Below, in pieces: positions 856-54,125 of a stretch of 64,000 bases of DNA. The stretch covers positions 2,766,625 through 2,830,624 of the forward strand of contig CAVSPI010000001.1 in the NCBI GenBank assembly GCA_963729975.1. The letters run 5' to 3'. Numbering within the stretch: position 1 is the first letter of the stretch; each line of letters opens with the position of its first letter. The notes beneath the pieces are model-generated. The model was not told where the DNA came from. It saw nothing but the letters and a program-made list of their open reading frames with translations, and made no database searches. Position numbers and translations under genes: made by a program. The DNA comes from an uncultured Acidobacteriota bacterium. GTDB taxonomy: Bacteria > Acidobacteriota > Vicinamibacteria > Vicinamibacterales > UBA2999.

Positions 856-3147
856 ATGAACCCTTCTACCCGTTCCAGAACGTGGCTCGCGCTGGTATGC
901 GCGGCGCTTCTGGCGCTGACCTCGTCCGGCAGGGCCGGTCAGGCCCAGCCCGCCGCGGCCGCATCGCCGCAGGGCTACATCACAGGCGTCGTTCAGAGCG
1001 GCCAGGGCCCGGAGGCCGGCGTCTGGGTCATTGCCGAGACCAACGACCTCCCGACCCCGTACATCAAGATCGTGGTGACCGACGACCGCGGCCGCTTCGT
1101 CGTCCCGGAACTGCCCAACGCCAACTACAGCGTGTGGGTGCGCGGTTACGGCCTCGCCGACTCGACGAAGACGCAGGTGCGGCCGGGTACGAATACGGTG
1201 ACCCTGCGCGCCGAGAAGGCGAAGACGCCGCAGGAAGCCGCCAAGGTCTTCCCGGGCGACTACTGGCTCTCGCTGCTCGAGCCGCCGGCCGCCAGCGAGT
1301 TCCCGGGCACCGGTCCGCAAGGCAACGGCCTCGGCCCGAGCATGCTCACGCAGAACCACTTCGTCAACTCGCTGAAGTCGGACTGCAACTTCTGCCATCA
1401 GCTCGGCAACCAGCTGACGCGCAGCGTCAATCACGTCTTCAAGGCAAAGCCCGAGCTGAAGACCCATGCCGAGGCCTGGGAATGGCGCCTCGGCACCGGC
1501 GTGCGCGGCAACGGGATGTACGGCGTGCTCAACAGCCAGGGACAGACGCGCGCGCTGAAGGTCTACTCGGACTGGACCGAGCGCATCGCCAAGGGCGAAG
1601 TGCCGCCGACGCCGCCGCGCCCGACCGGCATCGAGCGCAACGTCGTCGTCACGCTGTGGGACTGGGGCACGGACCACTCGTTCATGCACGACGAGGTCTC
1701 GACCGACAAGAACCGTCCCACCGTCAACGCCAACGGACCGATCTACGCCGTGTCCGCCGGGCACGGTTCGCTGACGATGGTCGACCCGGTCACCAACCGC
1801 ACGGAGGAGATCGAGATCCCGACGCGCGCGCCGCGTGAATCGGTACCCTCGCGCTTCCCGCGCCCGAATCGCCCGTCGCTCTGGTGGGGTGACACGCACC
1901 TGTGGTCGAACCCGCCGTACAACCCGGCCGACCCCCACAACGGCATGCTCGACAGCAAGGCGCGCGTGTGGATGACGTCGAAGATCCGGCCGAACCAGAA
2001 CCCGGCGTGGTGCCAGGACCCGGCGAACAAGTTCGCCTCGTGGTTCCCGATGCGGCAGAGCGGACGGCAGGCCTCGTACTACGATCCGAAGACGAAGCAG
2101 TTCGTCCTCATCGACACCTGCTACGCGACGCACCACCTGCAGTTCGACAACGACGCGAACGAGACGCTCTACTTCAACGAGCTGGTCGGCCCGATCGTCG
2201 GCTGGATCGACACCAAGGTCTACGACGAGACCAAGGACGAGCAGAAGGCGGTCGGCTGGTGCGGGCAGGTGGTCGACACCAACGGCGACGGCCGCATCAC
2301 GCGTCCGCCATGGAACCAGATCACCGGCCGCGGCGATTCGATCCTCTACTCGGGTGACACCGGCGGCAACAACGCGGCGGCCGGCCGCGGCGCCGCCGGC
2401 GGTGCACGCGGTGCCGGTCCGGCCGCCGGCGCCGGCGGCGGCCCCGATCCGAAGCTCGACACGCTCGTGAGCTACAGCCTCTACGCCGTGATCCCGAGCC
2501 CGGTCGACAACTCGGTGTGGGGCGTATCGGAACGCTATCCGGGATATCTCGTGCGCATGGACCGCGGCACCAACCCGCCCGAGTCGTGCATGAGCGAGAT
2601 CTACAAGGTGCCGGAGCCGGGCTTCGACCCGCGCGGCGTCGACATCGACAGGAACGGCGTGGTGTGGACGGCGCTGGCCGCCAGCAGCCACATGGCCAGC
2701 TTCGACCGCCGCAAATGCAAGCCGATCACCGGGCCGCGCAAGGCCGACGGCAGCGAGTGCGCGGAGGGCTGGACCCTTTACGAGACGCCGGGCCCCAACC
2801 TGAAGGGCACGAGCATCCCGGCCGACTTCCACTATTACAACTGGGTGGACCAGTTCAACATCCTCGGCATGGGCGAGAACATGCCGATTGCCACCGGCTC
2901 GAACTCCGACTCGCTCCTCGTGCTCGATCCGAAGACGCGCCGCTGGACGACACTGCGCGTGCCGTATCCGCTCGGCTTCTATTCGCGCGGGCTCGACGGC
3001 CGCATCGACGACCCGAAGGGCGGCTGGAAGGGCCGCGGGCTCTACGCCAACTACGGCACGCACTTCGTCTGGCACATCGAAGGCGGCAAGGGCACCAAGG
3101 GCAAGCTGGTGAAGTTCCAGATTCGTCCCGACCCGCTGGCGCGGTAA
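856..3147 (+). CDS. Large secreted protein, 763 aa. It has an N-terminal carboxypeptidase-regulatory-like (CarbopepD_reg) beta-sandwich, a single CxxCH heme-binding motif (CNFCH), an internal Gly/Ala-rich linker and a beta-propeller-like C-terminal half.
   Basis: ATG at 856 follows GAGGAG. Signal peptide MNPSTRSRTWLALVCAALLALTSSGRAG. The motif GYITGVVQSGQGPEAGVWVIAETNDL...DDRGRFVVPELPNANYSVWV is typical of CarbopepD_reg_2. CNFCHQLG is present. There is a low-complexity GGNNAAAGRGAAGGARGAGPAAGAGGG stretch. A long clean ORF followed by a rho-independent terminator. Confidence 0.85.
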   Translation: MNPSTRSRTWLALVCAALLALTSSGRAGQAQPAAAASPQGYITGVVQSGQGPEAGVWVIAETNDLPTPYIKIVVTDDRGRFVVPELPNANYSVWVRGYGLADSTKTQVRPGTNTVTLRAEKAKTPQEAAKVFPGDYWLSLLEPPAASEFPGTGPQGNGLGPSMLTQNHFVNSLKSDCNFCHQLGNQLTRSVNHVFKAKPELKTHAEAWEWRLGTGVRGNGMYGVLNSQGQTRALKVYSDWTERIAKGEVPPTPPRPTGIERNVVVTLWDWGTDHSFMHDEVSTDKNRPTVNANGPIYAVSAGHGSLTMVDPVTNRTEEIEIPTRAPRESVPSRFPRPNRPSLWWGDTHLWSNPPYNPADPHNGMLDSKARVWMTSKIRPNQNPAWCQDPANKFASWFPMRQSGRQASYYDPKTKQFVLIDTCYATHHLQFDNDANETLYFNELVGPIVGWIDTKVYDETKDEQKAVGWCGQVVDTNGDGRITRPPWNQITGRGDSILYSGDTGGNNAAAGRGAAGGARGAGPAAGAGGGPDPKLDTLVSYSLYAVIPSPVDNSVWGVSERYPGYLVRMDRGTNPPESCMSEIYKVPEPGFDPRGVDIDRNGVVWTALAASSHMASFDRRKCKPITGPRKADGSECAEGWTLYETPGPNLKGTSIPADFHYYNWVDQFNILGMGENMPIATGSNSDSLLVLDPKTRRWTTLRVPYPLGFYSRGLDGRIDDPKGGWKGRGLYANYGTHFVWHIEGGKGTKGKLVKFQIRPDPLAR

Positions 3148-3167
3148 ACGGCCATTCGGCACCCTCG

Positions 3168-3203
3168 AGGCCCGCAGGAGTACTCCTCCTGCGGGCTTTT
3201 TTT
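3168..3203 (+). terminator. Rho-independent terminator: hairpin GCCCGCAGGAG-tactc-CTCCTGCGGGC followed by a T7 run.
   Basis: Perfect 11 bp GC-rich stem plus TTTTTTT, 20 nt after the stop at 3147. Confidence 0.85.
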
Positions 3204-3274
3204 CGGGTGGGCCGATCGCGCACCACCTGCCTCCCGGAGTAGACTTCGCGCGATTCAGCTGAAGGATGCGCCCC

Positions 3275-5623: not shown

Positions 5624-5986
5624 CGCGGCCACGTGTTCATCGCTGCGATGGCGCACCCGGGGTCGAACCTCACGTTCATGGTGCGTGATCGATGTTCGCG
5701 CGTCAGGCGCGGCTCAGAGCAAGAGAGAACGCCGAGCTTTTGGCGCAGAGAGCCGCAGAGAGCAGAGAAGTCACGCCGGTGGGTGCCGGCCGTGGCCGGC
5801 ACTGGACACGAGCGCTACGCGTCGCCCCACCGGCTCAGTCTTGAGACAGGCAGTCACGGGTAGCTAGCGCGACGCCCCGATCGGGCACAAAGTGGCCACA
5901 GAACCGTTGCCTCTGCTCTCAGCGCTCTCTGCGATGAATCCCGGCGGCCTCTCCTCCCTCAGCGTCCGTTCGGCCTGGAAAACCGT

Positions 5987-6372
5987 TTACCGTGCGCCTG
6001 ATGCCTTGCCGCATGCTCGGCGCCCCGAAGTCAGCAAGAGGCCAACCGGGACGCCCGCCAAGCAGACGTACGTGTGCAACTGGCGAACATGAATGGGCAG
6101 AACGGCGTCGACAGCCTTCACCTCGATCACCACGTGCTCATCGACCACGAAATCAGCTCTGAAAGCACAGTCGATCACGATGCCGTCGTACACCAACGGC
6201 ACGGTCTTCTGACACTCGAAGGAAAGGCCGGCAACCACGACTCGTGCCGGAGGCAGGCGAGATAGGCGCTTTCGAGCAGCCCGGGGCCGAGGTGCCTGTG
6301 AATTCTTATGGCGGACGCGATGATGGCCGACGTCAGGTCGTCGAGGGCGTCGGCACTTCTTCCGGGGCGCAT
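5987..6372 (-). pseudogene. GxxExxY-family protein (PD-(D/E)XK nuclease superfamily) split by a single frameshift near 6237.
   Basis: N-terminal frame (6175..6372): MRPGRSADALDDLTSAIIASAIRIHRHLGPGLLESAYLACLRHE, containing the G-x-x-E-x-x-Y motif GLLESAY. C-terminal frame (5987..~6235): AGLSFECQKTVPLVYDGIVIDCAFRADFVVDEHVVIEVKAVDAVLPIHVRQLHTYVCLAGVPVGLLL. The two ORFs overlap in different frames. Confidence 0.7.
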
Positions 6373-6491
6373 CCAAGGGGCTTGTGCGGAGTTCGTGCCG
6401 GGCGACGACGCTCGGCTGGCGTTACCGAAAGCCCAGGCGGTGCGCAGAAGCTGCGAGGCCGCAAGTGGCGGCGGTGTGGAGTTGATCCACC

Positions 6492-7733
6492 TCAGGCCTC
6501 GACATACAACGCATCCCGCAGCCGCGCGAAGCGCGCGTCGCCGCGAAAGCTGTCGGCCTTGGGATCGACGTTCAGTGAATAGACGAACGCGGAGTTCTCG
6601 TCGAAGGCGCGCTCCAGTTCGTCGAACGCCTCAGCCTGCTGGCCGAGCGCCTGCCGCAGCACGGCCATGTGATACGCGTCCACGTACTCGAAGCGCCGCA
6701 CCTGCTCCAGCTGCTGCAGGATGGCGCGAGCCTCGCGGGTGCGCGTCATCTTGGCCAGGCACGTGCCTTCGAGCGCGCGCAGCCACGGCAGGTCGGGCGA
6801 CATGACCGACGCGAGCTGGTACTGGGCGAGCGCCTCGTCCAGCCGGCCGGAGAACTCGAGCGCCTGCGCGTAGTTGGCGCGTGAGATCTGCAGGTAGGGA
6901 TGCAACTCCACCGCCTTGCGCCCGAGCGTGATCGCCTCGTCGAACTCCCGCCGCCAGACGCGGACGTTGACGATGGTGGCGGGAAGCGTCGGCAGCAGAG
7001 GGTCGGCCTGAGAACCGCGCTCCACGATCTCGAGCGCGGCGTCGAGGCGGCCGAGCGTGGCATAGAGAAGCGCGAGGCGCACGTGCGTAGTGGCGTAGTC
7101 CGGCTTCTCGCGCAACACCTGCAGGAACTCCGCTTCCGCCTCCGCCAGTCGCCGCTCGAACAAGTGCAGCCCGTGCGCGCGGTTGCAGCGCAGCTCGGGG
7201 CGCAGGCCGCCGGCATCCACGGCACGGACGTGCGCGTCGAGGAAATCCTTGTAGACATCGCGCGGCGCACGCATGCCGAAGGTGGCCAGCATCAGGGAAC
7301 AGGTCGACAGCCCCTCGTAGGCGCGGAAGTCGCCCGGACACTCGCCGGCCGCCTGCGTGAAACATTCGATGGCGCGCTCGGCGCCTTCACGCGTGCGGCG
7401 GTTGGAGAAGTGCCAGCCCGTGCGCACGAGCTCGTCGGACGAGGGCACCTCGAGCACGTAGCCAACCTTGGGGCGGTGGCTGATCCAGCCGGCATACTCG
7501 CCAAGGCTCTTCTTCACCGCCGCCACGGTCACGTCGACCGTGTGGCGCGAGACGAACGTGCCTTCCCACGCCTCGGCGATCATCTGGTCGTAGTGGATTG
7601 GCTGCGCGCGGTGACGCAGCAGCACCTGCAGCACGCGCCGCGCCTGCGGGCGCAGCTGCACCTCGACGCCGTCCCGCAGCAGGCGGGTACCGGTCTGGTC
7701 GAACGCGAAGGGCCCGAACGAGGTCTGAGGCAT
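6492..7733 (-). CDS. Transcriptional regulator with an N-terminal OmpR/PhoB-type winged-helix DNA-binding domain and C-terminal TPR repeats.
   Basis: FAFDQTGTRLLRDGVEVQLRPQARRVLQVLLRHRAQPIHYDQMIAEAWEGTFVSRHTVDVTVAAVKKSLGEYAGWISHRPKVGYVLEV matches the trans_reg_C signature. Downstream are TPR-like repeats (LALLYATLGRLDAALEIVERG..., ANYAQALEFSGRLDEALAQYQLA). Confidence 0.85.
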   Translation of the reverse strand: MPQTSFGPFAFDQTGTRLLRDGVEVQLRPQARRVLQVLLRHRAQPIHYDQMIAEAWEGTFVSRHTVDVTVAAVKKSLGEYAGWISHRPKVGYVLEVPSSDELVRTGWHFSNRRTREGAERAIECFTQAAGECPGDFRAYEGLSTCSLMLATFGMRAPRDVYKDFLDAHVRAVDAGGLRPELRCNRAHGLHLFERRLAEAEAEFLQVLREKPDYATTHVRLALLYATLGRLDAALEIVERGSQADPLLPTLPATIVNVRVWRREFDEAITLGRKAVELHPYLQISRANYAQALEFSGRLDEALAQYQLASVMSPDLPWLRALEGTCLAKMTRTREARAILQQLEQVRRFEYVDAYHMAVLRQALGQQAEAFDELERAFDENSAFVYSLNVDPKADSFRGDARFARLRDALYVEA

Positions 7734-33060: not shown

Positions 33061-33794
33061 GCGGTGTCACTCCTTCTCTGCGTCGTCCCTTGAGCCACCT
33101 CGCGACGGCAACCAGGCCGGCACCCACCAGTCCATTCGAAGTTACGTCCTGCAGCCAGACATCGTTCCCCGCACGGCCTGCGAACGCCATGTCCGCCTCG
33201 CGACGGGCGCGCGCCAGCCGCAGCGGCAGCGCCGGATCGACCGGCTGCGACGTCCGGTCTTCGGCCTTCTGCAGTTGGGCGACCAGGCGCTGCGCCTGCT
33301 GCAGGTCGAGCATCGAGAGCGGCGATCCACAGTGCGGGCACCCCGCGCCGGCGGCAAGATCGACGGGCGCACCGCAGTTCGAGCAGTTGACGGCCTGCAG
33401 CGACTGCCGCAGCTGATCGATCTGCGGCGGCGTGAGCGGGCGGATGAAATCCTTCTCGCGCAGGAAGTCGAAAAACGTCGTGAACCGGCCATGCTCGTGC
33501 GGGCAGCGCCAGATACTCGAAGCGCGTGGCACGCTGCATGTCCGAGGTGCGCCGCAGCCGCGCCCGGCAGCGCGGACACTTGGCGAGGTCGGCACGGCCC
33601 GCCTGCGGCGCTGCCGCGCGCTCGCCGATCAGCCGGAAGAGCGCGAGCGTGGAGGCCGGCGTGAGGCTGAGGCTCTCGCGGGCGTCGAACCAGAACGCCT
33701 GACAGGAAAAGCAGATGTCGATCGTGACCGCGCGACGCAGGTGAGCGTCGAAGGTCTGCTCGAGCATCGGCGAAGCACAGCGCGGGCATTGCAC
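33061..33794 (-). pseudogene. TFIIB-type zinc-ribbon protein (YdjG-like), frameshifted near 33500. The 3' end is not resolved.
   Basis: Frame A: MQCPRCASPMLEQTFDAHLRRAVTIDICFSCQAFWFDARESLSLTPASTLALFRLI...KCPRCRARLRRTSDMQRATRFEYL. Frame B: CPHEHGRFTTFFDFLREKDFIRPLTPPQIDQLRQSLQAVNCSNCGAPVDLAAGAGCPHCGSPLSMLDLQQAQRLVAQLQKAEDR...GLVGAGLVAVARWLKG. Confidence 0.55.
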
Positions 33795-33843
33795 GGTCAG
33801 CGATGGTCCGCGGACAGCCTACCGCAAGTGGCGCCGGCCGCCG

Positions 33844-34698
33844 TCACTTCTCCGAGGCGATACGCGCACGCAGACGGCCGCGGGCGGCCTCCACGTAGCG
33901 GCGGCATGCCGCAGGGTCGACAAGCGTGCCCTTCGCGAGACGCTCCCAGAGATCCGAGGCATCCGCATGCGGCGTCAACAGCACGTCGCACGGCAGACGG
34001 CTGAGCGTGGCGAAGCCGCGTTCGAAGTCCTGGATGGCCTGCGGATAGGTTCGGCTTGCCGTGTATTTGAATCCGTCGGCCGAGACGGCCGTCAGGCTGT
34101 CGGCGTAGACCATGTCGAGGCAGCGGCCGTCCTGGCACGAGCGCCAGCTCCACGTCGTCCCGCCCGGCGTGTGCCCTCCTGTCGCATGCGCGGTCAGCGC
34201 CAGGTCGCCAACGCGCAGCGTCTCCCCGTCCTGCACTACGCGCACGCCCTTGACGCGAGCGATATCCAGCGACAACCCGAACTGCGGATCGTCGTCGCCG
34301 GACTTGCCCGACTCGAGCACGCGGGCGCTCGACGCCGTCGCCGCCACCGCCGCGCCGCTCAACCGCTGCAGCTCGCCGATGCCGCCGGCATGGTCGTAGT
34401 GCACGTGCGAGTTGAGGATCAGCTCGACGTCCTCGACGCGGAAGCCAAGCGCGCGGATGCCGCTGACGATGCCGGCGACCGATTCGGGCAGCGCGCCGTC
34501 GAGCAGCACGTGACCCGCGTCCGAGGTGATGAGGATGGCGCTCACGCCGCGCGGGCCGACGTAGTAGACGTTGCCGAAGAGCCGCGCCGGCGCCTGCGGC
34601 GCATTCCAGGCAGCGCGTGCATCCTGCGCCACCGCCGCCATCGTCATGCCGGTCGCGCAGGCGAGGGCAAGCAGAGCCTTTCGGATTGTATCCGGCAT
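33844..34698 (-). CDS. Subclass B3 metallo-beta-lactamase-fold hydrolase, secreted.
   Basis: Signal peptide MPDTIRKALLALACATGMTMAAVAQ. Zinc motif LNSHVHYDHAGG (HxHxDH), then ...HATGGHTPGGTTW...LLTPHAD. The global pattern matches the L1/GOB/THIN-B-type B3 enzymes. Confidence 0.85.
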   Translation of the reverse strand: MPDTIRKALLALACATGMTMAAVAQDARAAWNAPQAPARLFGNVYYVGPRGVSAILITSDAGHVLLDGALPESVAGIVSGIRALGFRVEDVELILNSHVHYDHAGGIGELQRLSGAAVAATASSARVLESGKSGDDDPQFGLSLDIARVKGVRVVQDGETLRVGDLALTAHATGGHTPGGTTWSWRSCQDGRCLDMVYADSLTAVSADGFKYTASRTYPQAIQDFERGFATLSRLPCDVLLTPHADASDLWERLAKGTLVDPAACRRYVEAARGRLRARIASEK

Positions 34699-34718
34699 GC
34701 CGATCAGTATCTCTACTC

Positions 34719-34832
34719 AATGCCCAATGCTCAATGCGCAAGAGAGAAGGCGACGGGCTGTAGGCGACAGGCACAGCCTCACCCGGTTGCCCAGATTTCG
34801 GGCGCTTCCGCATTGCGCATTGCGCATTGAAA
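34719..34832. repeat. Composite element in a divergent promoter region. It is a 23 bp imperfect inverted repeat built from three tandem CAATGC heptamers (TCAATGCCCAATGCTCAATGCGC ... GCGCATTGCGCATTGCGCATTGA), flanking a ~65 bp core that contains a further hairpin (GGCTGTAGGCGACAGGCACAGCC).
   Basis: Direct inspection. The arms are reverse complements of each other with 2 mismatches. Confidence 0.7.
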
Positions 34833-34858
34833 TTCACCCCCCAGCCTATACTCCGACG

Positions 34859-35830
34859 GTGAGAGCATCCCTTCTCGCGCTTGCGTGCGCGCTCGTCGCC
34901 GGCTGCGCCATCCCTCGCGCCGCCGTCACGACCCGGCCCGACTCGCCATCAGCCCTCGAGACCTCGCTGCGCGCGCACATGGAGTTTCTCGCCAGTGACG
35001 CGCTGAATGGCCGTGGCAGCGGCACACGCGACGAGTGGATCGCCGCCACGTACGCCGCGGCACAGATGCGACGGCTCGGGCTCGAGACGATGGATGCGGC
35101 CGGCTATGTGCAGACGATCGTCCGCGGCACGGCGCGCACCTGGAATGCCGTCGGTCGTCTTGCCGGTGCCGATGCCGCTGGCCGGCAGGAGGTGATCCTG
35201 CTCAGCGCCCACATCGATCACCTCGGCAGTCGCGCCGGACAGGCCAACGCACCGGCCGACGCCATCTACAACGGCGCCGATGACGACGCCTCGGGAACGG
35301 TGGCGGTGCTCGAGCTGATGGAGCTGCTGGCGCGCGGGCCGCGGCCGCGGCGATCGATCGTCTTCGCGTTCTTCGGCAGCGAGGAACGCGGCGGGCTCGG
35401 CTCGCAGCACTTCGCCGACACACCCACGGTGCCGCTGCCGCAGATCGTCGCCAACCTGCAGTTCGAGATGATCGGCCGCCCCGACGGCGCGGTGGCGCCG
35501 CGCACGCTCTGGCTCACGGGCTTCGAGCGCTCCACGCTGGGAGCCGAGCTGGCCAGGCGCGGTGCCCGGCTCGTGCCGGACCCGCATCCCGAGATGAACT
35601 TCTTCGAACGCTCCGACAACATCCAGTTCGCGCGCCGCGGCGTCGTCGCCCACACGGTGGCGAGCTACGGGCTGCACACGGACTACCACACGCCGGCCGA
35701 CCAGCTCGATCGCATCGACTTCGCGCACATGGCCGACGCCATCGCGTCGCTGGCCGAGCCAATCCGCCGGCTGGCGGACTCGGACTTCAGGCCGGCGTGG
35801 AAGCCGGGGATGAAGCCAGAGAGCAAGTAG
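34859..35830 (+). CDS. M28-family zinc aminopeptidase, lipoprotein.
   Basis: GTG 34859 gives MRASLLALACALVAGCAIP (lipobox LVAGC). ...LLSAHIDHLG...YNGADDDASGTVAVLELMELLA...IVFAFFGSEERGGLGSQHF...NLQFEMIGRP are the M28 Zn-ligand motifs (H, D, EE, D, H). The upstream part of the track ORF is non-protein-like. Confidence 0.8.
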   Translation: MRASLLALACALVAGCAIPRAAVTTRPDSPSALETSLRAHMEFLASDALNGRGSGTRDEWIAATYAAAQMRRLGLETMDAAGYVQTIVRGTARTWNAVGRLAGADAAGRQEVILLSAHIDHLGSRAGQANAPADAIYNGADDDASGTVAVLELMELLARGPRPRRSIVFAFFGSEERGGLGSQHFADTPTVPLPQIVANLQFEMIGRPDGAVAPRTLWLTGFERSTLGAELARRGARLVPDPHPEMNFFERSDNIQFARRGVVAHTVASYGLHTDYHTPADQLDRIDFAHMADAIASLAEPIRRLADSDFRPAWKPGMKPESK

Positions 35831-35879
35831 GACGTTCGACGTTGGAACTTTGCAGGGAAGTCTGCGTATCTCTCCTTGG

Positions 35880-36408
35880 CAATCTACAAGAGTGATGTTT
35901 GCGTGAGTGACCAGACCGACCTGATCCAGGGCACGCTCGACCTGCTCATCATGCGGACCATCGCGCTCGAGCGGATGCATGGCTGGGCTATCGCGCAGCG
36001 GATCCAGCAGCCCGCGCACGCGTGCCAGCAGCTTCTGTCCCGGGAACGACACGTCGTCGCTGGCGGCGACGACCAGCGTCGGCATCGGCAGACGGCGCAG
36101 ATCCGCGTCGGTCACAAGCGGCGGGATGCGCAGGTCGAGCACGAAGTGGCGAATGGCGTCGCCCATGTACTGCGCCCAGTCGTCGTCCCAGGTGCTGAAG
36201 AGCGGCTCGACGAAGCGGCGCAGGCGCGCCGGCGACGGATCACGAGCGGCGGATTGCGCGGATCGCCGGCCAGCAGCACATGCGACGGCCCGTGCGCAGT
36301 CGCCACGTCACGCTGCTCGACCGGCACCGGTAGGCGCTGCAGGAACCGCTCGTACCACCCTTCGAGCCGAGCGCGGCCTGCCTCACTCTTGAAGATTCCG
36401 GCCGCCAC
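35880..36408 (-). pseudogene. Alpha/beta-hydrolase-fold gene remnant, frameshifted and too short.
   Basis: Frame 1: MAAGIFKSEAGRARLEGWYERFLQRLPVPVEQRDVATAHGPSHVLLAGDPRNPPLV. Frame 2: ...MGDAIRHFVLDLRIPPLVTDADLRRLPMPTLVVAASDDVSFPGQKLLARVRGLL. Together this is under 180 aa, against ~270 aa for intact family members. Confidence 0.4.
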
Positions 36409-36430
36409 GCGTCGATCGTATCAGGACGGT

Positions 36431-36465
36431 TGGCAGGTCCGGCTGAAGCCGGACCCCACGCCTCT
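36431..36465. repeat. REP-like hairpin CAGGTCCGGCTGAAGCCGGACCCCACGCC.
   Basis: Direct inspection. Confidence 0.7.
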
Positions 36466-36523
36466 GCGCCAGCTATAATCCGCCGACAGCTGGACGTGGC
36501 CAGCCGTGAATCGAGGAGGCTGC

Positions 36524-37324
36524 ATGCGTGCGACTGACGGCGTCCTGGCGCGACGGTGGCGAGTGGCGGCCTGTGCGATCGTCGCAGCGCTTCTCGCGGT
36601 ACCGGCCACCGCACAGTGGCTGAAACATCCCGACCCGCGCGTGCCGCGGACGGCGGACGGCAAGCCGAACCTGGCGGCGCCTGCCCCGCGCCTGGCTGAC
36701 GGCAAGCCCGATCTCAACGGTCTGTGGAACGCGACGGACGGCCGCTTCCTGACAAACCTGAGCCGGCGTGCCGGCGTCGAGCCGCCATTCCAGCCGTGGG
36801 CGAAGGCGGTCTTCGACGAGCGGCAGGCCAACCAGGGGCGCGATCGGCCGGCCGGGTTCTGCCTGCCGCACGGCGTGCCCGATGCGATGCTCGTGCCCGG
36901 CTACCCCTGGAAGTTCGTGCAGACGCCGGGGCTGACGATCATCCTCTACGAGAACTTCACCGATTTCCGGCAGATCTTCACTGACGGCCGCGACTTCCCC
37001 ACCGAACGCGCGGGCACCTGGTTCGGCTACTCGATCGGCAAGTGGGAGGGCGACGTCTTCGTGGTCGAGAGCACCGGCTTCAACGGCAAGACGTGGCTCG
37101 ACGACGGCGGGCATCCGATTACCGAGGCGATGCGGATCACCGAGCGCTTCCGCCGTCGCGACTTCGGACACCTGGACGTCGAGTTCACGTTCGACGATCC
37201 GAAGACCTACACGAAGCCGTGGACCGTCACGGTGCCGTTCGAGCTGCTCGCCGACACCGAGATCATCGAGAATGTGTGCGAGAACGAGCGCGACGCCGCG
37301 CGCATCGGCGGGATCCGGCCGTAA
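36524..37324 (+). CDS. Secreted hypothetical protein; member 1 of a three-paralog family in this window.
   Basis: Signal peptide MRATDGVLARRWRVAACAIVAALLAVPATAQW. Shared family motifs: PFQPWAKAVFDERQ, FCLPHGVP, GTWFGYSIGKWEGDVFVVESTGFNGKTWLDDGGHPITEAMRITERFRRRDFGHLDVEFTFDDPKTYTKPWTV. Confidence 0.75.
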   Translation: MRATDGVLARRWRVAACAIVAALLAVPATAQWLKHPDPRVPRTADGKPNLAAPAPRLADGKPDLNGLWNATDGRFLTNLSRRAGVEPPFQPWAKAVFDERQANQGRDRPAGFCLPHGVPDAMLVPGYPWKFVQTPGLTIILYENFTDFRQIFTDGRDFPTERAGTWFGYSIGKWEGDVFVVESTGFNGKTWLDDGGHPITEAMRITERFRRRDFGHLDVEFTFDDPKTYTKPWTVTVPFELLADTEIIENVCENERDAARIGGIRP

Positions 37325-37359
37325 GTCCTCACCTCGCTGAATTCAGCAGGAGACCGCCC

Positions 37360-37455
37360 ATGTCCGACGCGACCGCAGCCAATCACAAGGCGATTCTTGC
37401 CAACCAGAAGCAGATCCTGGCCAACCAGAAACTGATCCTGAAGAAACTGGGCTAG
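37360..37455 (+). CDS. Small ORF (31 aa) with heptad-like repeats: MSDATAANHKAILANQKQILANQKLILKKLG.
   Basis: ATG 37360 is preceded by AGGAGAC at an 8 nt spacing. It lies 35 bp downstream of the paralog-1 stop. The periodic ILANQK repeat suggests an amphipathic helix. Confidence 0.35.
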   Translation: MSDATAANHKAILANQKQILANQKLILKKLG

Positions 37456-37486
37456 CGAGTGCGGCCCGAAGTCGGGCTGATCTCTC

Positions 37487-37780
37487 GTGCCCGGCTGCGA
37501 GGAGACGATTCGCGTCAACGGCCGCGCGCGGCTCACCTCACCCGCGATCCGGCGCTGCTCCAGCCGTGCATCGTCGAAGGCAGGAAACACTGCTCGGCAT
37601 CGGCGTCGAGGTCGAGCAGTGCTTCCTGCATTGCGCCAAGGCCTTCCGTCGCTCCGGCCGGCGGCCGCCGATCTGGCCTCGCCCGCCTGTGTGCTGTTCG
37701 ACCAGATCAAGCCGGAGGGCGTGACCGTGAAGGATTACGAGCGCGCCCTCGCCCAAGGCCACGCGACGCGCCTCTATTGA
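37487..37780 (+). pseudogene. C-terminal fragment of a PPOX-class (pyridoxamine 5'-phosphate oxidase-like, FMN-binding split-barrel) gene, frameshifted.
   Basis: ETIRVNGRARLTSDPALLQPCIVEGRKH ... FDQIKPEGVTVKDYERALAQGHATRLY lie in two frames; the N-terminal half is missing. Confidence 0.4.
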
Positions 37781-37848
37781 GGCGCACGTCGCGCCGGGGC
37801 ACAAGGCGTCGGCCGCGGGTCGAATAGGGTATAAGAAGCGGACAAAGG

Positions 37849-39900
37849 ATGACCGTGTCTATGAGAACTCTTTCGTGCGTGCTGGTGTCGCTCGGTATCG
37901 GGCTCCTGGCCGCGTCGGCGCAGACGCGCGCGGCGCAGGCGCCGGCGCCGGCCGCCCCCTGTGAACCGGCGGGACCAATCCGCTTCGTCTGCAACCAGGC
38001 CGGCCCGGAAGACCTGGTCCAGGTACCCGGCACGCCGTTCCTGATCGCGTCGGCCTACGGTCCCGAGGGCGGCGTGCATCTCGTCGACACCAAGACGGCC
38101 TCGTCGACGCGGCTGTTCCCGGGCGCCACCGCACGCGAACGGCTCGATGCGAAAACCTACGCCACCTGCCCAGGGCCACTGCAGGGCACCGACCGCGAGC
38201 GCTTCCGTACGCACGGGCTCGCCATCAAACGCGGCAGCGGAACGGTGCACACGCTCTACGTCGTGCATCACGGCACGCGCGAGTCGGTGGAGGTGTTCGA
38301 GCTGGACGTGCGGCCGAATCCGCCGGCGATCACCTGGATCGGCTGCGCCATCGCCCCGGATCCGATCGGGCTGAACGCTGTGGTTCCACTCCCCGACGGC
38401 GGCTTCGCCGCCACCAACTTCCAGCCGCGCGTGCCGGCCGGCGGCCGCGGCGGCGGCTTTCCGGCAGAGATGCTCGCCGGACAGCGCAACGGCGAAGTGT
38501 GGGAATGGCACACGGCGTCGGGCTGGGCCAAGGTGCCCGGCAGCGAGTCGGCCGCGGCCAACGGTTTGGAGATCTCGCCTGACGGCCGCTGGTACTACGT
38601 GGCGCAGTGGGGCAACCGCGCGTTCATGCGGCTGTCGCGCGGACAGACGCCGGTGCGCCGCGACGAAATCTCGCTGGGCTTCCGCGTCGACAATGTGCGC
38701 TGGGCGCCGGACGGCACGCTGCTCGTCGCCGGGCAGGGCGGCCCCGACACGGCGATCTTCGGGCGCGGGCGCGGCACACCGGCGCCAGATGCCGGCGTAG
38801 CCACGTCGACGATTGGCAAGGTCGATCCGCAGACGCTGACCTACCGCGAGATCATCAACTACCCGACGAGCACGGCGGTCAGCTTTGCGACCGTGGCCGT
38901 GCAGGTCGGCAACGAATTCTGGGTGGGCTCGGCCTTTGGCGATCGCGTCGCCCGCTATCCCGTGAGCGGGCTGGGGCCGGTGCGCGCCGCCTCCCTCGCA
39001 CCGCCGGTCTTCCATCATCTGCACTTCAACTCCACCGATCCGGCGGCGACCATCGCCGGCTACCAGAAGCTCTGGCCCGAGACGACGAAGAAGGCCACGA
39101 TCGGCGGCTTCGAGGGCCTCGAGAACGGCCGACTCTACCTGCTGTGGAACAAGGTGTCGAGCGCCCCTCCGGTGCAGCCGCAGAGCGCGTACTGGCATCA
39201 GGTGTGGCTGACGCCTGACGTGCGCCGCTACGTCGCCCGCGCGCGCTCGCACGGCATGCAGCCGGAGCCGCTCTACACCTCGGACGAGGGCGGGACGGTG
39301 GAGATCAGCAGCGACACGCTGCCCGGCACGTTGACAAAGAGCGCGCTCGCAGAGGCCAAGGCGAAAGGCGTCGCGCCCACGCGCCAGGCGGGCTACACCT
39401 ACATCGCGGGACCGGACGGTCTCTCGGTCGAGGGCTTCGAGCGCGCCGGCGAGACCGAGCGGCTCGGCCAGATCGACATGTGGCAGGACAACCCGGTGTG
39501 CGCGGAACTCTGGTACGCGAGGCATCTGGGCGCGACGCGGCGGGCGCCGGCGGGCAACGCACCGCAACCCACGGAAAGCACCTGCATGGTGGCGACCGGC
39601 GAGCCGAGCTGGCCGTCGACGATGCCGCAGGGCACGCGGCGGACGCCGAGCGGACGCGCGGCGTATGGCGACGTCGCGTTGTTCTGGTACACCCGCCCGG
39701 GCAATCAGCCGCTGGCGAGCACACGCGGCCAGAAGGTGGATCACCTCGCGTTCGCGGTACGCGATCTCGAGGCCTGGGTGGCCAAGCTGAAAAGCGAGAA
39801 CGTCACGATCCTGCGCGGCCCATACAACTTCGGCACGTCGAAGGCCGTGCTGATCGAAGGCCCGAGCCACGAAGCCATCGAACTGGTGGAAGAGCGGTGA
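37849..39900 (+). CDS. Secreted fusion protein: N-terminal SMP-30/gluconolactonase/paraoxonase-like beta-propeller plus C-terminal VOC (glyoxalase-like) domain.
   Basis: Signal peptide MTVSMRTLSCVLVSLGIGLLAASAQ. Propeller-like segments follow (HGLAIKRGSGTVHTLYVVHHG, ANGLEISPDGRWYYVAQWGNRAF, LLVAGQGGPD). VOC signatures are VFHHLHFNSTDPAATIAGYQKLW...VDHLAFAVRDLEAWVAKLKSENVTILRGPYNFGTSKAVLIEGPSHEAIELVE. An intact 683-aa ORF. Confidence 0.85.
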   Translation: MTVSMRTLSCVLVSLGIGLLAASAQTRAAQAPAPAAPCEPAGPIRFVCNQAGPEDLVQVPGTPFLIASAYGPEGGVHLVDTKTASSTRLFPGATARERLDAKTYATCPGPLQGTDRERFRTHGLAIKRGSGTVHTLYVVHHGTRESVEVFELDVRPNPPAITWIGCAIAPDPIGLNAVVPLPDGGFAATNFQPRVPAGGRGGGFPAEMLAGQRNGEVWEWHTASGWAKVPGSESAAANGLEISPDGRWYYVAQWGNRAFMRLSRGQTPVRRDEISLGFRVDNVRWAPDGTLLVAGQGGPDTAIFGRGRGTPAPDAGVATSTIGKVDPQTLTYREIINYPTSTAVSFATVAVQVGNEFWVGSAFGDRVARYPVSGLGPVRAASLAPPVFHHLHFNSTDPAATIAGYQKLWPETTKKATIGGFEGLENGRLYLLWNKVSSAPPVQPQSAYWHQVWLTPDVRRYVARARSHGMQPEPLYTSDEGGTVEISSDTLPGTLTKSALAEAKAKGVAPTRQAGYTYIAGPDGLSVEGFERAGETERLGQIDMWQDNPVCAELWYARHLGATRRAPAGNAPQPTESTCMVATGEPSWPSTMPQGTRRTPSGRAAYGDVALFWYTRPGNQPLASTRGQKVDHLAFAVRDLEAWVAKLKSENVTILRGPYNFGTSKAVLIEGPSHEAIELVEER

Positions 39901-39902
39901 TG

Positions 39903-40012
39903 AGGTCCGGCGAAAGCCGGACCCTGTAAGCAGGTCCGGCGAAAGCCGGACCCTGTAAGCAGGTCCGGCGAAAGCCGGACCCTGAAGCAGGTCCGGCGAA
40001 AGCCGGACCTCA
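39903..40012. repeat. Four tandem copies of a 28-29 bp unit AGGTCCGGCGAAAGCCGGACCCTGTAAGC (hairpin GTCCGGC-GAAA-GCCGGAC).
   Basis: Direct inspection. Copies begin at 39903, 39932, 39961 and 39989. The last two copies are degenerate in the tail. Confidence 0.9.
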
Positions 40013-40054
40013 CAACACAGACTGACGAAGCATCATAGGGTCCGGCCCGGGCCC

Positions 40055-40387
40055 TCAGAATCGCTCGCGCCTGTGTGTCGAGAGATGCGTGGCGAGCAGC
40101 GCCAGCGCCGCCGGTGTCGCCTGCACGAAGAGGATCGACAGCTTCGCCGTGAGCGCGCCGAAGACCCCGGCGGCCACAATGCAGCCGAGGAAGAACATCT
40201 TCACGTCGCGGCGATCGGTCCACAATCCCCACCCGAGACCTGCCGCAAGGAAGCCGTTGTAGAGGCCCTGGCTCTTGGCCAGCACGGCAGACGCCGCCGA
40301 CTCCTGCACCGTCAGGTTGAAGACCTCGCGCCCGATCGGATGATCCCAGAAGAACATCTCGAGCACGAGGAAGACGAGGTGGCTCAC
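40055..40387 (-). CDS. DUF1304-family small membrane protein.
   Basis: (GTG)MSHLVFLVLEMFFWDHPIGREVFNLTVQESAASAVLAKSQGLYNGFLAAGLGWGLW...MFFLGCIVAAGVFGALTAKLSILFVQATPAALALL. Three to four TM helices. Confidence 0.7.
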   Translation of the reverse strand: MSHLVFLVLEMFFWDHPIGREVFNLTVQESAASAVLAKSQGLYNGFLAAGLGWGLWTDRRDVKMFFLGCIVAAGVFGALTAKLSILFVQATPAALALLATHLSTHRRERF

Positions 40388-40497
40388 CGCAACGAGCGCC
40401 GTCAGCGCGATCGAGATCGACTTCAGAGAGACCTCCCCGTTCTAAACGCTCGAGACGCCATCCCGACGCTCACTCGACAGCTCGAACTCCTCGCTTG

Positions 40498-40530
40498 AGC
40501 ATTGAGCATTGAGCATTGAGCATTGGACGC
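40498..40530. repeat. Tandem heptamer (GAGCATT x4, equivalent to CAATGCT x4 on the minus strand), upstream of the DUF1304 gene.
   Basis: Direct inspection. It is the same CAATGC heptamer family as the inverted pair at 34719-34832. Confidence 0.85.
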
Positions 40531-40534
40531 CCTG

Positions 40535-41161
40535 CTACGGCTTCGGAATGCGGATGGTGCTGATCATCGCACTGCCGCTGGCTGCGTAAACGAGCGCCAA
40601 CGGGTGCAGCAGCGCCGGCCCCACCTGCAGCGCGCCGAACCAGAGATCGGCGTCCGTCCGCTCCAGCCTGAACGCCAGCGCCAGAAGCCCGACGATGACG
40701 ATGCTGGTGGGGATGGGGGTGCCTTCGAAGTACTTCACCTTGCCGGTCGTCGTATCGGAGAGCGCCGCCGCGGTGACATTGAACCGGGCGAGGCGGCTGA
40801 CGCCGCAGACGACGAAGTAAGTGAGGCACAGCATGTCCCAGCCGCCGCGCAGCCCGAGCGTGAATCCGAGCACGGCTGGCGCCACGCCAAAGGAGATGAC
40901 GTCCGCCAGCGAGTCGAGGTCGCCGCCGAGCACCGACTGCCGGTGCTTCTGCGCGCGCGCGACCTGGCCGTCGAGGACATCGCACAGCAGCGCCAGCGCC
41001 AGCAGTACGAACGCGATCCAGAGGAAGCGGTTGCTGCCGGTGGCGACGTAGTCGAGGCAGAGGAACAGGGCAATCGTGCCGCAGCTGGCGTTGCCGATCG
41101 TCAGCGCGTCGGCGGCGGTGTAGGACCGCAGCATCGAGAAGGGCGGGTGGCGGTCGGCCAT
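40535..41161 (-). CDS. CDP-alcohol phosphatidyltransferase (PssA-type CDP-diacylglycerol--serine O-phosphatidyltransferase-like).
   Basis: MADRHPPFSMLRSYTAADALTIGNASCGTIALFL...LLCDVLDGQVARAQKHRQSVLGGDLDSLADVISFGVAPA carries the CDP-OH_P_transf motif D-G-x2-A-R-x8-G-x3-D-x3-D. ATG confirmed at 41159-41161. The upstream 110 codons of the track ORF are non-protein-like. Confidence 0.8.
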   Translation of the reverse strand: MADRHPPFSMLRSYTAADALTIGNASCGTIALFLCLDYVATGSNRFLWIAFVLLALALLCDVLDGQVARAQKHRQSVLGGDLDSLADVISFGVAPAVLGFTLGLRGGWDMLCLTYFVVCGVSRLARFNVTAAALSDTTTGKVKYFEGTPIPTSIVIVGLLALAFRLERTDADLWFGALQVGPALLHPLALVYAASGSAMISTIRIPKP

Positions 41162-41264
41162 GACACAGCATAGGTTACGCGGTCGGGCGATGCCGCCGCT
41201 CGGGAAGGGCGATAGAATCGCCCACACAGGAGCTGGCGTTCCGGCGTTCTGAATGGAGTGTTCG

Positions 41265-42797
41265 ATGAAACAAGCTGTGAATCGCTCGCGGGTGCGTCCG
41301 GTCTGGCGGTCGGCGATGCTCGCATGTGCCGGGGTCCTCGGGACGGCGGTCGTTCTCGTCGGCCAGCAGAATTCCACGGTGCCGCAGCCGCGCGCCGATC
41401 GGCTGCCGCCGCCTGGTCCGGCCAGTCCCAAGCCGAGCCGTGGCGTGCCGCGTGCTGATGGCATGATGCCGACGGTGCCCGCCGGCTTCACAGTGACGAG
41501 CTATGCCGAGCTGCAGGCGCCGCGGATGATGGTCTACGCGCCGAACGGCGACCTGTTCGTCAGCTCGCCGGCCGCCAACAACATCACGGTGTTGCGCGAC
41601 GCCAACAACGATGGCGTCTTCGAGTCGCGCGGCGTCTTTGCGCAGGGCGACCCGCCCGCCGGACGCCGCGGCGGCGGCCCGCCGCCGAGCGCCCCAAGCC
41701 GCACCGCAGGCGCCGCGCGCCGGCGCAGCGAATCCCGCGCAGGCGGGTGCCGCTCCGCAGGCGGGCGCTCAGCCGGCTGCGCCGCAAGCCGCGGCGCCGC
41801 AGGCCGCACGCGGCGCCGGCGCACCGCCGCCAGCACCAGCGGCCGGCCGCGGTCCCTCGATTCTCGGCGCCAACGCGCCGGCGTGCGAGGCGCCGCCGGA
41901 GTTCGTGAAGCGCGGTGCCCGGTGCGATCCAGGCGCCGTTCGGCCTCGCCTTCCACGATGGCTATCTCTACGTCGGCAACACGGCCTCGCTCGTCCGCTA
42001 CAAGTACGCCGAGCGGCGATCTGCAGGCGCAGGGCGCGCCCGAGAAGCTGATGGACCTGCCGCCCGGCGGTCACTACCACGCGCAACATCCTGTTCAACC
42101 GCGCCGGCACGAAGATGTACATCGCCGTCGGCTCGCGCTCGAACAACGACGCCGGCGAAGACTGCCGCCGCGCCGCCATTCTCGAGTTCAATCCCGGACG
42201 GCAGCGGTTTCCGCGTGTACGCGTCGGGCATTCGCAACCCGGTCGGCCTGGCGTTGCAGCCGGGCACCGACATCATCTGGACGGCGATGAACGAGCGCGA
42301 CAACCTCGGCGACGATCTCGTGCCCGACTACGCGACGTCGGTCAAGGAAGGCGGCTTCTACGGCTGGCCGTATTCCTACATCGGCAAGAACTACGACCCG
42401 CGCTACGTCGGCGCGTTTCCCGATCTCGTCAACAAGCACGATCGTTCCCGACGTGCTGATGCCGGCGCATGCGGCCGCGCTCGGCATCACGTTCTACACC
42501 GGCACGCAGTTCCCGCAGCGCTATCGCAATGGCGGCTTCGTGGCGCTGCACGGCTCGTGGAACCGCTCGGTGGCCTCGGGCTACAAGGTCGTCTTCTTTC
42601 CGATGAACAACGGCACGACCGGGACCGATCGAGGACTTCCTGTCCGGCTTCCTCACGACCACCGGCACGGACGGGACGCCCATCCAGACGTGGGGCCGCC
42701 CGGTCGGCGTCACCGTCGCACCCGATGGCGCGCTGCTCGTCTCCGACGACGGCAGCAACCGGATCTGGAAAATCAGCGCGTCGGCGAGCGCGCGGTA
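41265..42797 (+). pseudogene. PQQ-dependent sugar / L-sorbosone dehydrogenase-like beta-propeller, secreted, broken by at least 4 frameshifts.
   Basis: Segments in different frames: MKQAVNRSRVRPVWRSAMLACAGVLGTAVVLVGQ...FTVTSYAELQAPRMMVYAPNGDLFVSSPAANNITVLRDANNDGVFESRGVFAQG / ...[27 protein letters not shown] / [16 protein letters not shown] / ...[72 protein letters not shown] / ...[46 protein letters not shown] / ...[35 protein letters not shown]. Confidence 0.7.
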
Positions 42798-53961: not shown

Positions 53962-54125
53962 GCTTGGCGGGTCCGAAAGGACCCGCCCTACGCAACAGCG
54001 GGTCCGAAAGGACCCGCCCTACGCAACAGCAGTCCGAAAGGACCGGCTCTACTCTCACGGTCACCAGCAGGCCGGTCCGGATAGACCCGCGGCCACCGTA
54101 GGGCCGGTTCTTTCGGACCGGCCCT
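53958..54125. repeat. REP-like cluster: GGGTCCGAAAGGACCCGCCCTACGCAACAGC x2, then AGTCCGAAAGGACCGGCTCTAC, then GTAGGGCCGGTTCTTTCGGACCGGCCCTCC.
   Basis: Direct inspection. About 170 bp of hairpin repeats directly after the paralog-3 stop. Confidence 0.85.

Follow-up and report, generated by a model that had tools for sequence, protein, structure and literature searches.

This locus raises the question of whether short tandem heptamers flanking a divergent promoter region are a binding array for a regulatory protein, the arms of a structural or mobile element, or simple sequence repeats (SSRs) with no bearing on the genes beside them. In the 64-kb stretch of DNA that was analysed (the window; 69% GC), three tandem arrays of a 7-base unit, GCATTGN (NCAATGC on the other strand), are present at two loci, and all of them are intergenic, as listed in Table 1. 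The left and right arrays form an inverted pair between the divergent genes for a B3 metallo-beta-lactamase (MBL) and an M28 peptidase. TRF assigns the window arrays a period of 7 and 3.0-4.4 copies and places the third at 40495-40525 (4.4 copies). The two-unit pattern CAATGCNCAATGC, with at most 1 mismatch, matches the window 7 times where 0.23 matches are expected, and the three-unit pattern, with at most 3 mismatches, also matches 7 times (0.05 expected); the three arrays are real repeats of one unit, far above chance expectation. By itself, the hexamer CAATGC shows no enrichment in the window (26 seen and 28 expected), which indicates that the tandem arrangement is what is special.

Table 1. 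Coordinates of the heptamer arrays, putative promoter elements and adjoining genes in the window.
Feature	Position	Strand	Details
B3-type MBL	33844-34698	-	Pfam
-10-like hexamer GATACT	34706-34711	-	7 nt before MBL ATG (34698); kept in L121 and L122; putative
Left array	34717-34739	-	Forward letters TCAATGC CCAATGC TCAATGC GC; three heptads; on the minus strand, towards the MBL gene, GCGCATTGA GCATTGG GCATTGA
Spacer (core) between arms	34740-34807		68 bp
Right array	34808-34830	+	CC GCATTGC GCATTGC GCATTGA; three heptads towards the M28 gene
-10-like hexamer TATACT	34847-34852	+	6 nt before M28 GTG (34859); putative
M28 peptidase	34859-35830	+	Pfam
DUF1304	40055-40387	-	Pfam
Third array	40497-40525	+	GAGCATT x4.4, that is, GCATTGA x3 then GCATTGG
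CDP-alcohol phosphatidyltransferase	40535-41491	-	Pfam; stop codon 40535-40537

The first-pass annotation of this DNA had reported tandem heptads at the divergent promoter region, and these do form a real family, with some changes in detail. The left arm, which it placed at 34719-34741, is off by 2 and actually occupies 34717-34739. The right arm was correctly located at 34808-34830, but its first base is C, not G, and it reads CCGCATTGCGCATTGCGCATTGA; because of this misread base the two arms match at 20/23 positions instead of 21/23, and the mismatches number three where two had been counted. The core is 68 bp long rather than ~65 bp. At the third site, GAGCATT does occur in four copies, at 40497-40524 and not at 40498-40530. 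Nor is this array immediately upstream of the DUF1304 gene, as had been written: it follows the CDP-alcohol phosphatidyltransferase stop codon by 9 nt and precedes the DUF1304 start by ~70-110 nt. The probable start of DUF1304 is a CTG at 40426 (minus strand) with GGAGG ahead of it; the interval 40388-40426 adds 13 codons ahead of the listed GTG, and its changes relative to the syntenic contig L121 (described below) are mainly synonymous.

The gene identities given earlier for the MBL, the M28 peptidase and DUF1304 are supported by Pfam, and the starts at 34698 and 34859 are upheld as well. The closest named homologs of the MBL come from Gemmatimonadaceae and Longimicrobium (~63-66% identity), an affinity that would suggest a Gemmatimonadota-like soil bacterium as the host. 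In the M28 peptidase, an N-terminal lipobox is kept both in the window and in L121, which supports the GTG start. A Shine-Dalgarno sequence is absent before both starts, and the position of a -10-like box 6-7 nt before the start codon suggests that the MBL and M28 mRNAs are leaderless, a feature that may be frequent in this genome. Hexamers of this kind (TAGAAT, TAGGGT, TAGGAT, GATACT or TATACT) are observed 6-7 nt before five starts, namely 34698(-), 34859(+), 30855(-), 29258(-) and 4576(-), and all five are without a Shine-Dalgarno sequence. The left array ends 4 nt from the GATACT hexamer, and the right array ends 16 nt from TATACT, which is kept in L121 along with a C-rich stretch upstream. 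The left array contains a TTGAGC, 16-17 bp from the -10 box on its upstream side in the window and in the two related contigs, and the array would supply this sequence at the -35 position of the MBL promoter. Scans for terminators at the array region and for known RNA families of the Rfam type in 33500-41800 gave no hits.

How the arrays change over time can be followed in two relatives. L121 is a syntenic metagenome contig whose MBL is 85% identical to that of the window in protein and whose genes are ~80-87% identical in DNA. It carries arrays of the GCATTGN unit at all three matching intergenic sites, with copy numbers of ~11 against 3 and ~9 against 3 in the MBL/M28 spacer and of 2.4 against 4.4 at the third site (L121 against the window). 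L122, from another sample, is identical to L121 at 1175/1177 positions outside the array, and inside it the two differ by one 7-nt unit and by substitutions; the L122 array reaches up to 11.9 copies by TRF. A one-unit difference between such near-identical sequences is the behaviour of an SSR that changes by slippage, in which whole 7-nt units are gained or lost, as slipped-strand mispairing would produce. The first-pass annotation had held that a simple sequence repeat would count against a binding array; SSR behaviour is indeed what is found, as copy number varies both among relatives and between near-identical strains. A protein-binding role is plausible as well. Elsewhere in the comparison, L121 has an intact alpha/beta-hydrolase gene (5707-6636), to which two fragments at 36005-36428 of the window correspond; ~360 bp of the gene is deleted in the window, where it is likely a pseudogene.

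The spacer behaves differently from the genes on either side of it. The 68-bp core has no detectable similarity to the L121 spacer, although the genes are 80-87% identical, and the arm-to-arm element measures ~114 bp in the window and ~190 bp in L121. These results bear on the proposal of a MITE-like mobile element of ~113 bp, with the arrays as terminal inverted repeats, which was suggested by the two inverted arms around a core; MITE and REP sequences are likewise small intergenic elements with inverted arms. The check for a target-site duplication that had been recommended found none (the flanks are CTAC and AATT), and for this reason, together with the unconserved core and the variable size, which includes a three-fold change in arm length, the proposal was rejected. 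Additionally, the core occurs just once in the window, the third site consists of a direct array without a partner, and the arms are themselves tandem repeats, unlike those of MITE or REP elements; the probability left to a mobile element is negligible.

Other repeats of the window look like a REP- or terminator-like family with GAAA loops. Four tandem 29-bp units at 39904-40009, between convergent genes, each form the hairpin GGTCCGGC-GAAA-GCCGGACC (fold z -10), and they are absent from the syntenic L121, where the spacer is 8 bp long. A single related hairpin is located at 36436-36455, and a second tandem hairpin array, with a 31-bp unit of GCGGGTCC-GAAA-GGACCCGC, occupies 53967-54052.

The inverted layout of the MBL/M28 arms might also reflect pairing, in which the arms form a DNA cruciform or an RNA stem-loop that serves as a terminator, a stabiliser or a supercoil sink. 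The 128-nt region as a whole has a better fold than its shuffles (z -3.9), the sizes of the two arms co-vary (3/3 in the window and ~11/9 in L121), and in other phyla and viral contigs inverted partner arrays are enriched near CAATGC-type arrays (19/123, compared with 0-5 for control motifs), with tight hairpins between genes in three contigs (L011, L204 and L237). However, long loops disfavour cruciform extrusion, and the loop here would be 50-68 nt; the putative leaderless starts would put the arms upstream of both transcription starts, so that they would not be transcribed; and the seventh positions of the units mismatch between the arms. The third array is without a partner and unstructured (z +0.75). 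The hairpin ascribed to the core in the first-pass annotation does have a 6-bp stem, GGCTGT/ACAGCC, but its fold is no better than that of shuffled sequences in the window (z -0.88) or in L121 (z +0.03), neither value being significant. The two arms share one orientation, with GCATTGN reading towards the gene of each, which explains the inverted layout without a hairpin. We therefore regard a structural role as highly improbable; the arrangement would reflect a pair of arrays, each close to its promoter, and neither a hairpin nor a transposon. Inverted CAATGC-type pairs with short loops are seen between genes at L011 267-352, L110 236-354, L204 ~3142-3230 and L237 ~3161-3215, and in cyanobacteria the usual order is a GCATTG array followed by a CAATGC array, the reverse of that in the window.

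The pattern of variation within the arrays is uneven. In 29 in-register units, 2/174 core sites vary, compared with 14/29 seventh positions (Fisher p = 5e-12), and the degenerate units are those at the array ends distal to the genes. Additionally, one hexamer is found at two unlinked loci, for which the chance probability is ~0.003. The near-invariant core, the free seventh base and the sharing of the hexamer by two loci together indicate that something constrains the hexamer; the source of this constraint could be protein recognition or a mechanistic bias in the way the repeats change. Since the arms also adjoin the -10 boxes, an operator-like role is plausible, and from the sequence we put its chance at even or slightly below. 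The arrays as a whole are best explained, at about even confidence, as a lineage-specific heptanucleotide SSR family of the STRR or long-SSR (LSSR) kind, which would form an operator-like reiterated site and whose copy number is driven by slippage. One hexamer per 7 bp would be the recognition site of a sequence-specific DNA-binding factor, repeated along the array, and the number of copies would drift as units slip.

A neutral or selfish SSR, which arises by slippage in AT-richer intergenic DNA, is upheld by concerted evolution and has no cis-regulatory role, is nearly as likely as the operator-like reading, although on its own terms it is less likely than not. It would account for the three-fold copy difference between orthologs and the single unit that separates near-identical strains; the MBL promoters of distant relatives work without arrays, and heptamer arrays are common whatever their sequence. 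The passage of PMC4679880 that cites Mrazek 2007 puts the excess of heptamers down to polymerase slippage. However, the occurrence of one hexamer at two unlinked loci does not sit well with neutrality, nor does a heterogeneous seventh base beside an invariant core, as single-unit slippage should homogenise both. All three arrays, moreover, are kept in both lineages despite the diverged spacer.

Slippage could itself be put to use, and the locus would then be a contingency locus at which phase variation switches or tunes the expression of DUF1304 and of two secreted enzymes, the MBL and the M28 peptidase. The polymorphic copy number and the location of the arrays in a promoter region common to two divergent genes are consistent with this possibility, and phase variation mediated by SSRs is presented as well established in the portion of PMC4679880 that treats it. 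The arrays, however, lie upstream of the -10 box and not between the -35 and -10 elements, and the MBL TTGAGC keeps its distance of 16-17 bp from the -10 box at every copy number, in the window, L121 and L122 alike. The host, furthermore, belongs to a free-living soil lineage. From its sequence, we consider phase variation at this locus distinctly unlikely.

The operator-like reading also has evidence against it. A strict sigma-70 scan of the array region returned no promoter. A -35 role for the array at the M28 promoter was considered and rejected, as its TTG hexamers lie 14 or 21 bp (window) and 12 or 19 bp (L121) from the -10 box, spacers that misfit a usable -35 distance. In the third array the orientation is reversed, with CAATGCT reading towards the downstream gene. 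Copy numbers from 3 to 11 give no sign of constraint. As for a regulator, the 18 window proteins scanned against Pfam include no RHH match, and the protein in question may be unlinked. Both candidates put forward earlier, the wHTH-TPR protein (6492-7733; a Trans_reg_C domain and TPR repeats, with no match to BTAD) and the HTH_25 protein, lack a demonstrable link to the arrays in the domain scan.

The distribution of the unit is narrow. The sequence of the array-bearing lineage covered here comprises the 64-kb window and a further ~10 kb. Within ~600 kb of sequence, from 80 contigs that encode MBL homologs, CAATGC arrays occur only in close relatives, and no array precedes the MBL genes of more distant relatives, which is a further point against an operator. 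Other lineages have heptamers of their own, such as GTGCTGA/AGTGCCA, AAACCCC, TGATTAA and GGCTTC[C/G]. In other soil lineages with MBL homologs, arrays of GTGCTGA x8.6 plus AGTGCCA x5.7, AAACCCC, TGATTAA, GGCTTCG and AAGGCTC are observed (L160 7120-7214, L137 6673-6718, L141 3640-3686, L195 16023-16049 and L178 4812-4836), and that of L178 overlaps the start codon of the MBL.

A CAATGC family spanning several phyla was considered and rejected. In a three-unit scan of 185,579 genomes, cyanobacteria made up most of the matches listed, with CAATGCC as their uniform unit, and some of those listed came from Bacteroidota, Firmicutes, Acidobacteriota and Planctomycetota. In IMG/VR viral contigs, CAATGCN x3 was found in 39 stretches, compared with 32, 18 and 63 for three composition-matched heptamers. 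Since the controls are as frequent in this set, CAATGCN is not special across taxa, a result that also weighs against an operator, and the occurrences in different phyla look independent.

Among known repeats, the closest resemblance is to the STRR and long-SSR families. Heptamers are the most abundant class of long SSR in many genomes, above all large, high-GC ones (PMC4679880, PMC4692102). Described heptameric families include TAACTGA in Beggiatoaceae, cyanobacteria and Bacteroidetes (PMC4679880) and GGGNATC in Xanthomonas and Nostoc (PMC4692102); cyanobacterial STRR heptamers and heptameric long SSRs are attributed to Mrazek 2007 in the part of PMC4679880 that cites it. According to a preprint, the expression of recO and recF in Nostoc 7120 is modulated by heptamer repeats that lie close to promoters (10.1101/2022.06.06.494920). 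The arrays share with these families a head-to-tail 7-nt unit in 2 to ~11 copies, an intergenic location, a unit common to more than one locus (two in the 64 kb of the window), a copy number that varies among relatives, one degenerate position, as in GGGNATC, and hosts with large, high-GC genomes. They differ in that the GCATTGN unit and its host lineage are new and that the unit has no G-quadruplex potential; in that TAACTGA lies on the ribosome-binding site, whereas the GCATTGN arrays do not; and in that two arrays of the window are inverted around divergent, apparently leaderless promoters. STRR in the strict sense requires a cyanobacterial host, which the host of the window is not.

The first-pass annotation had likened the arrays to binding sites of response regulators or other multimeric DNA-binding proteins. 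The constrained hexamer, the kept positions and the shared orientation of the arms towards their genes are consistent with a binding array, but the period does not suit the first of these classes. Response-regulator and SARP sites are spaced ~10-11 bp apart, and SARP repeats recur every 11 bp, each 7-nt repeat being followed by a 4-nt spacer. The window repeats are contiguous and have a 7-bp period, in contrast to sites ~10-11 bp apart on one helix face, and for this reason response-regulator and SARP sites do not fit. A likeness to the SARP/OmpR family lies in the heptameric direct repeats that replace or overlap the -35 region near the -10 box (PMC5930380).

For contiguous direct and inverted heptads at promoters, the nearest mechanistic analogue by layout appears to be the operator of the omega repressor of inc18 plasmids. 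In the omega (RHH) repressor system and in MetJ met-box arrays, 7-8-bp repeats are contiguous, and one protein dimer binds each repeat. The window arrays resemble these in having contiguous repeats, direct and inverted, that overlap putative promoter regions, and a factor could bind contiguous heptads here as omega does. The likeness is one of layout: the omega consensus is WATCACW, compared with GCATTGN, and the context of GCATTGN is chromosomal. A bolder extension of this analogy is a global regulator, specific to the lineage, that has the GCATTGN heptads as its operator and would polymerise along the 7-bp repeats at the leaderless promoters of secreted enzymes, with slippage-driven copy number tuning expression. 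We regard this extension as unlikely; if true, it would amount to a chromosomal heptad regulon in Gemmatimonadota-like soil bacteria.

Knowledge of heptameric repeat families in cyanobacteria and in large, high-GC genomes goes back decades, and the present arrays extend this class of repeat by one new unit and one new host lineage without revealing a new mechanism. The locus provides a clean comparative case, in which orthologous promoter-proximal arrays are kept, the hexamer is under constraint while the seventh base varies freely, and copy number changes fast. A cultured relative would make the choice between a binding array and neutral slippage testable.
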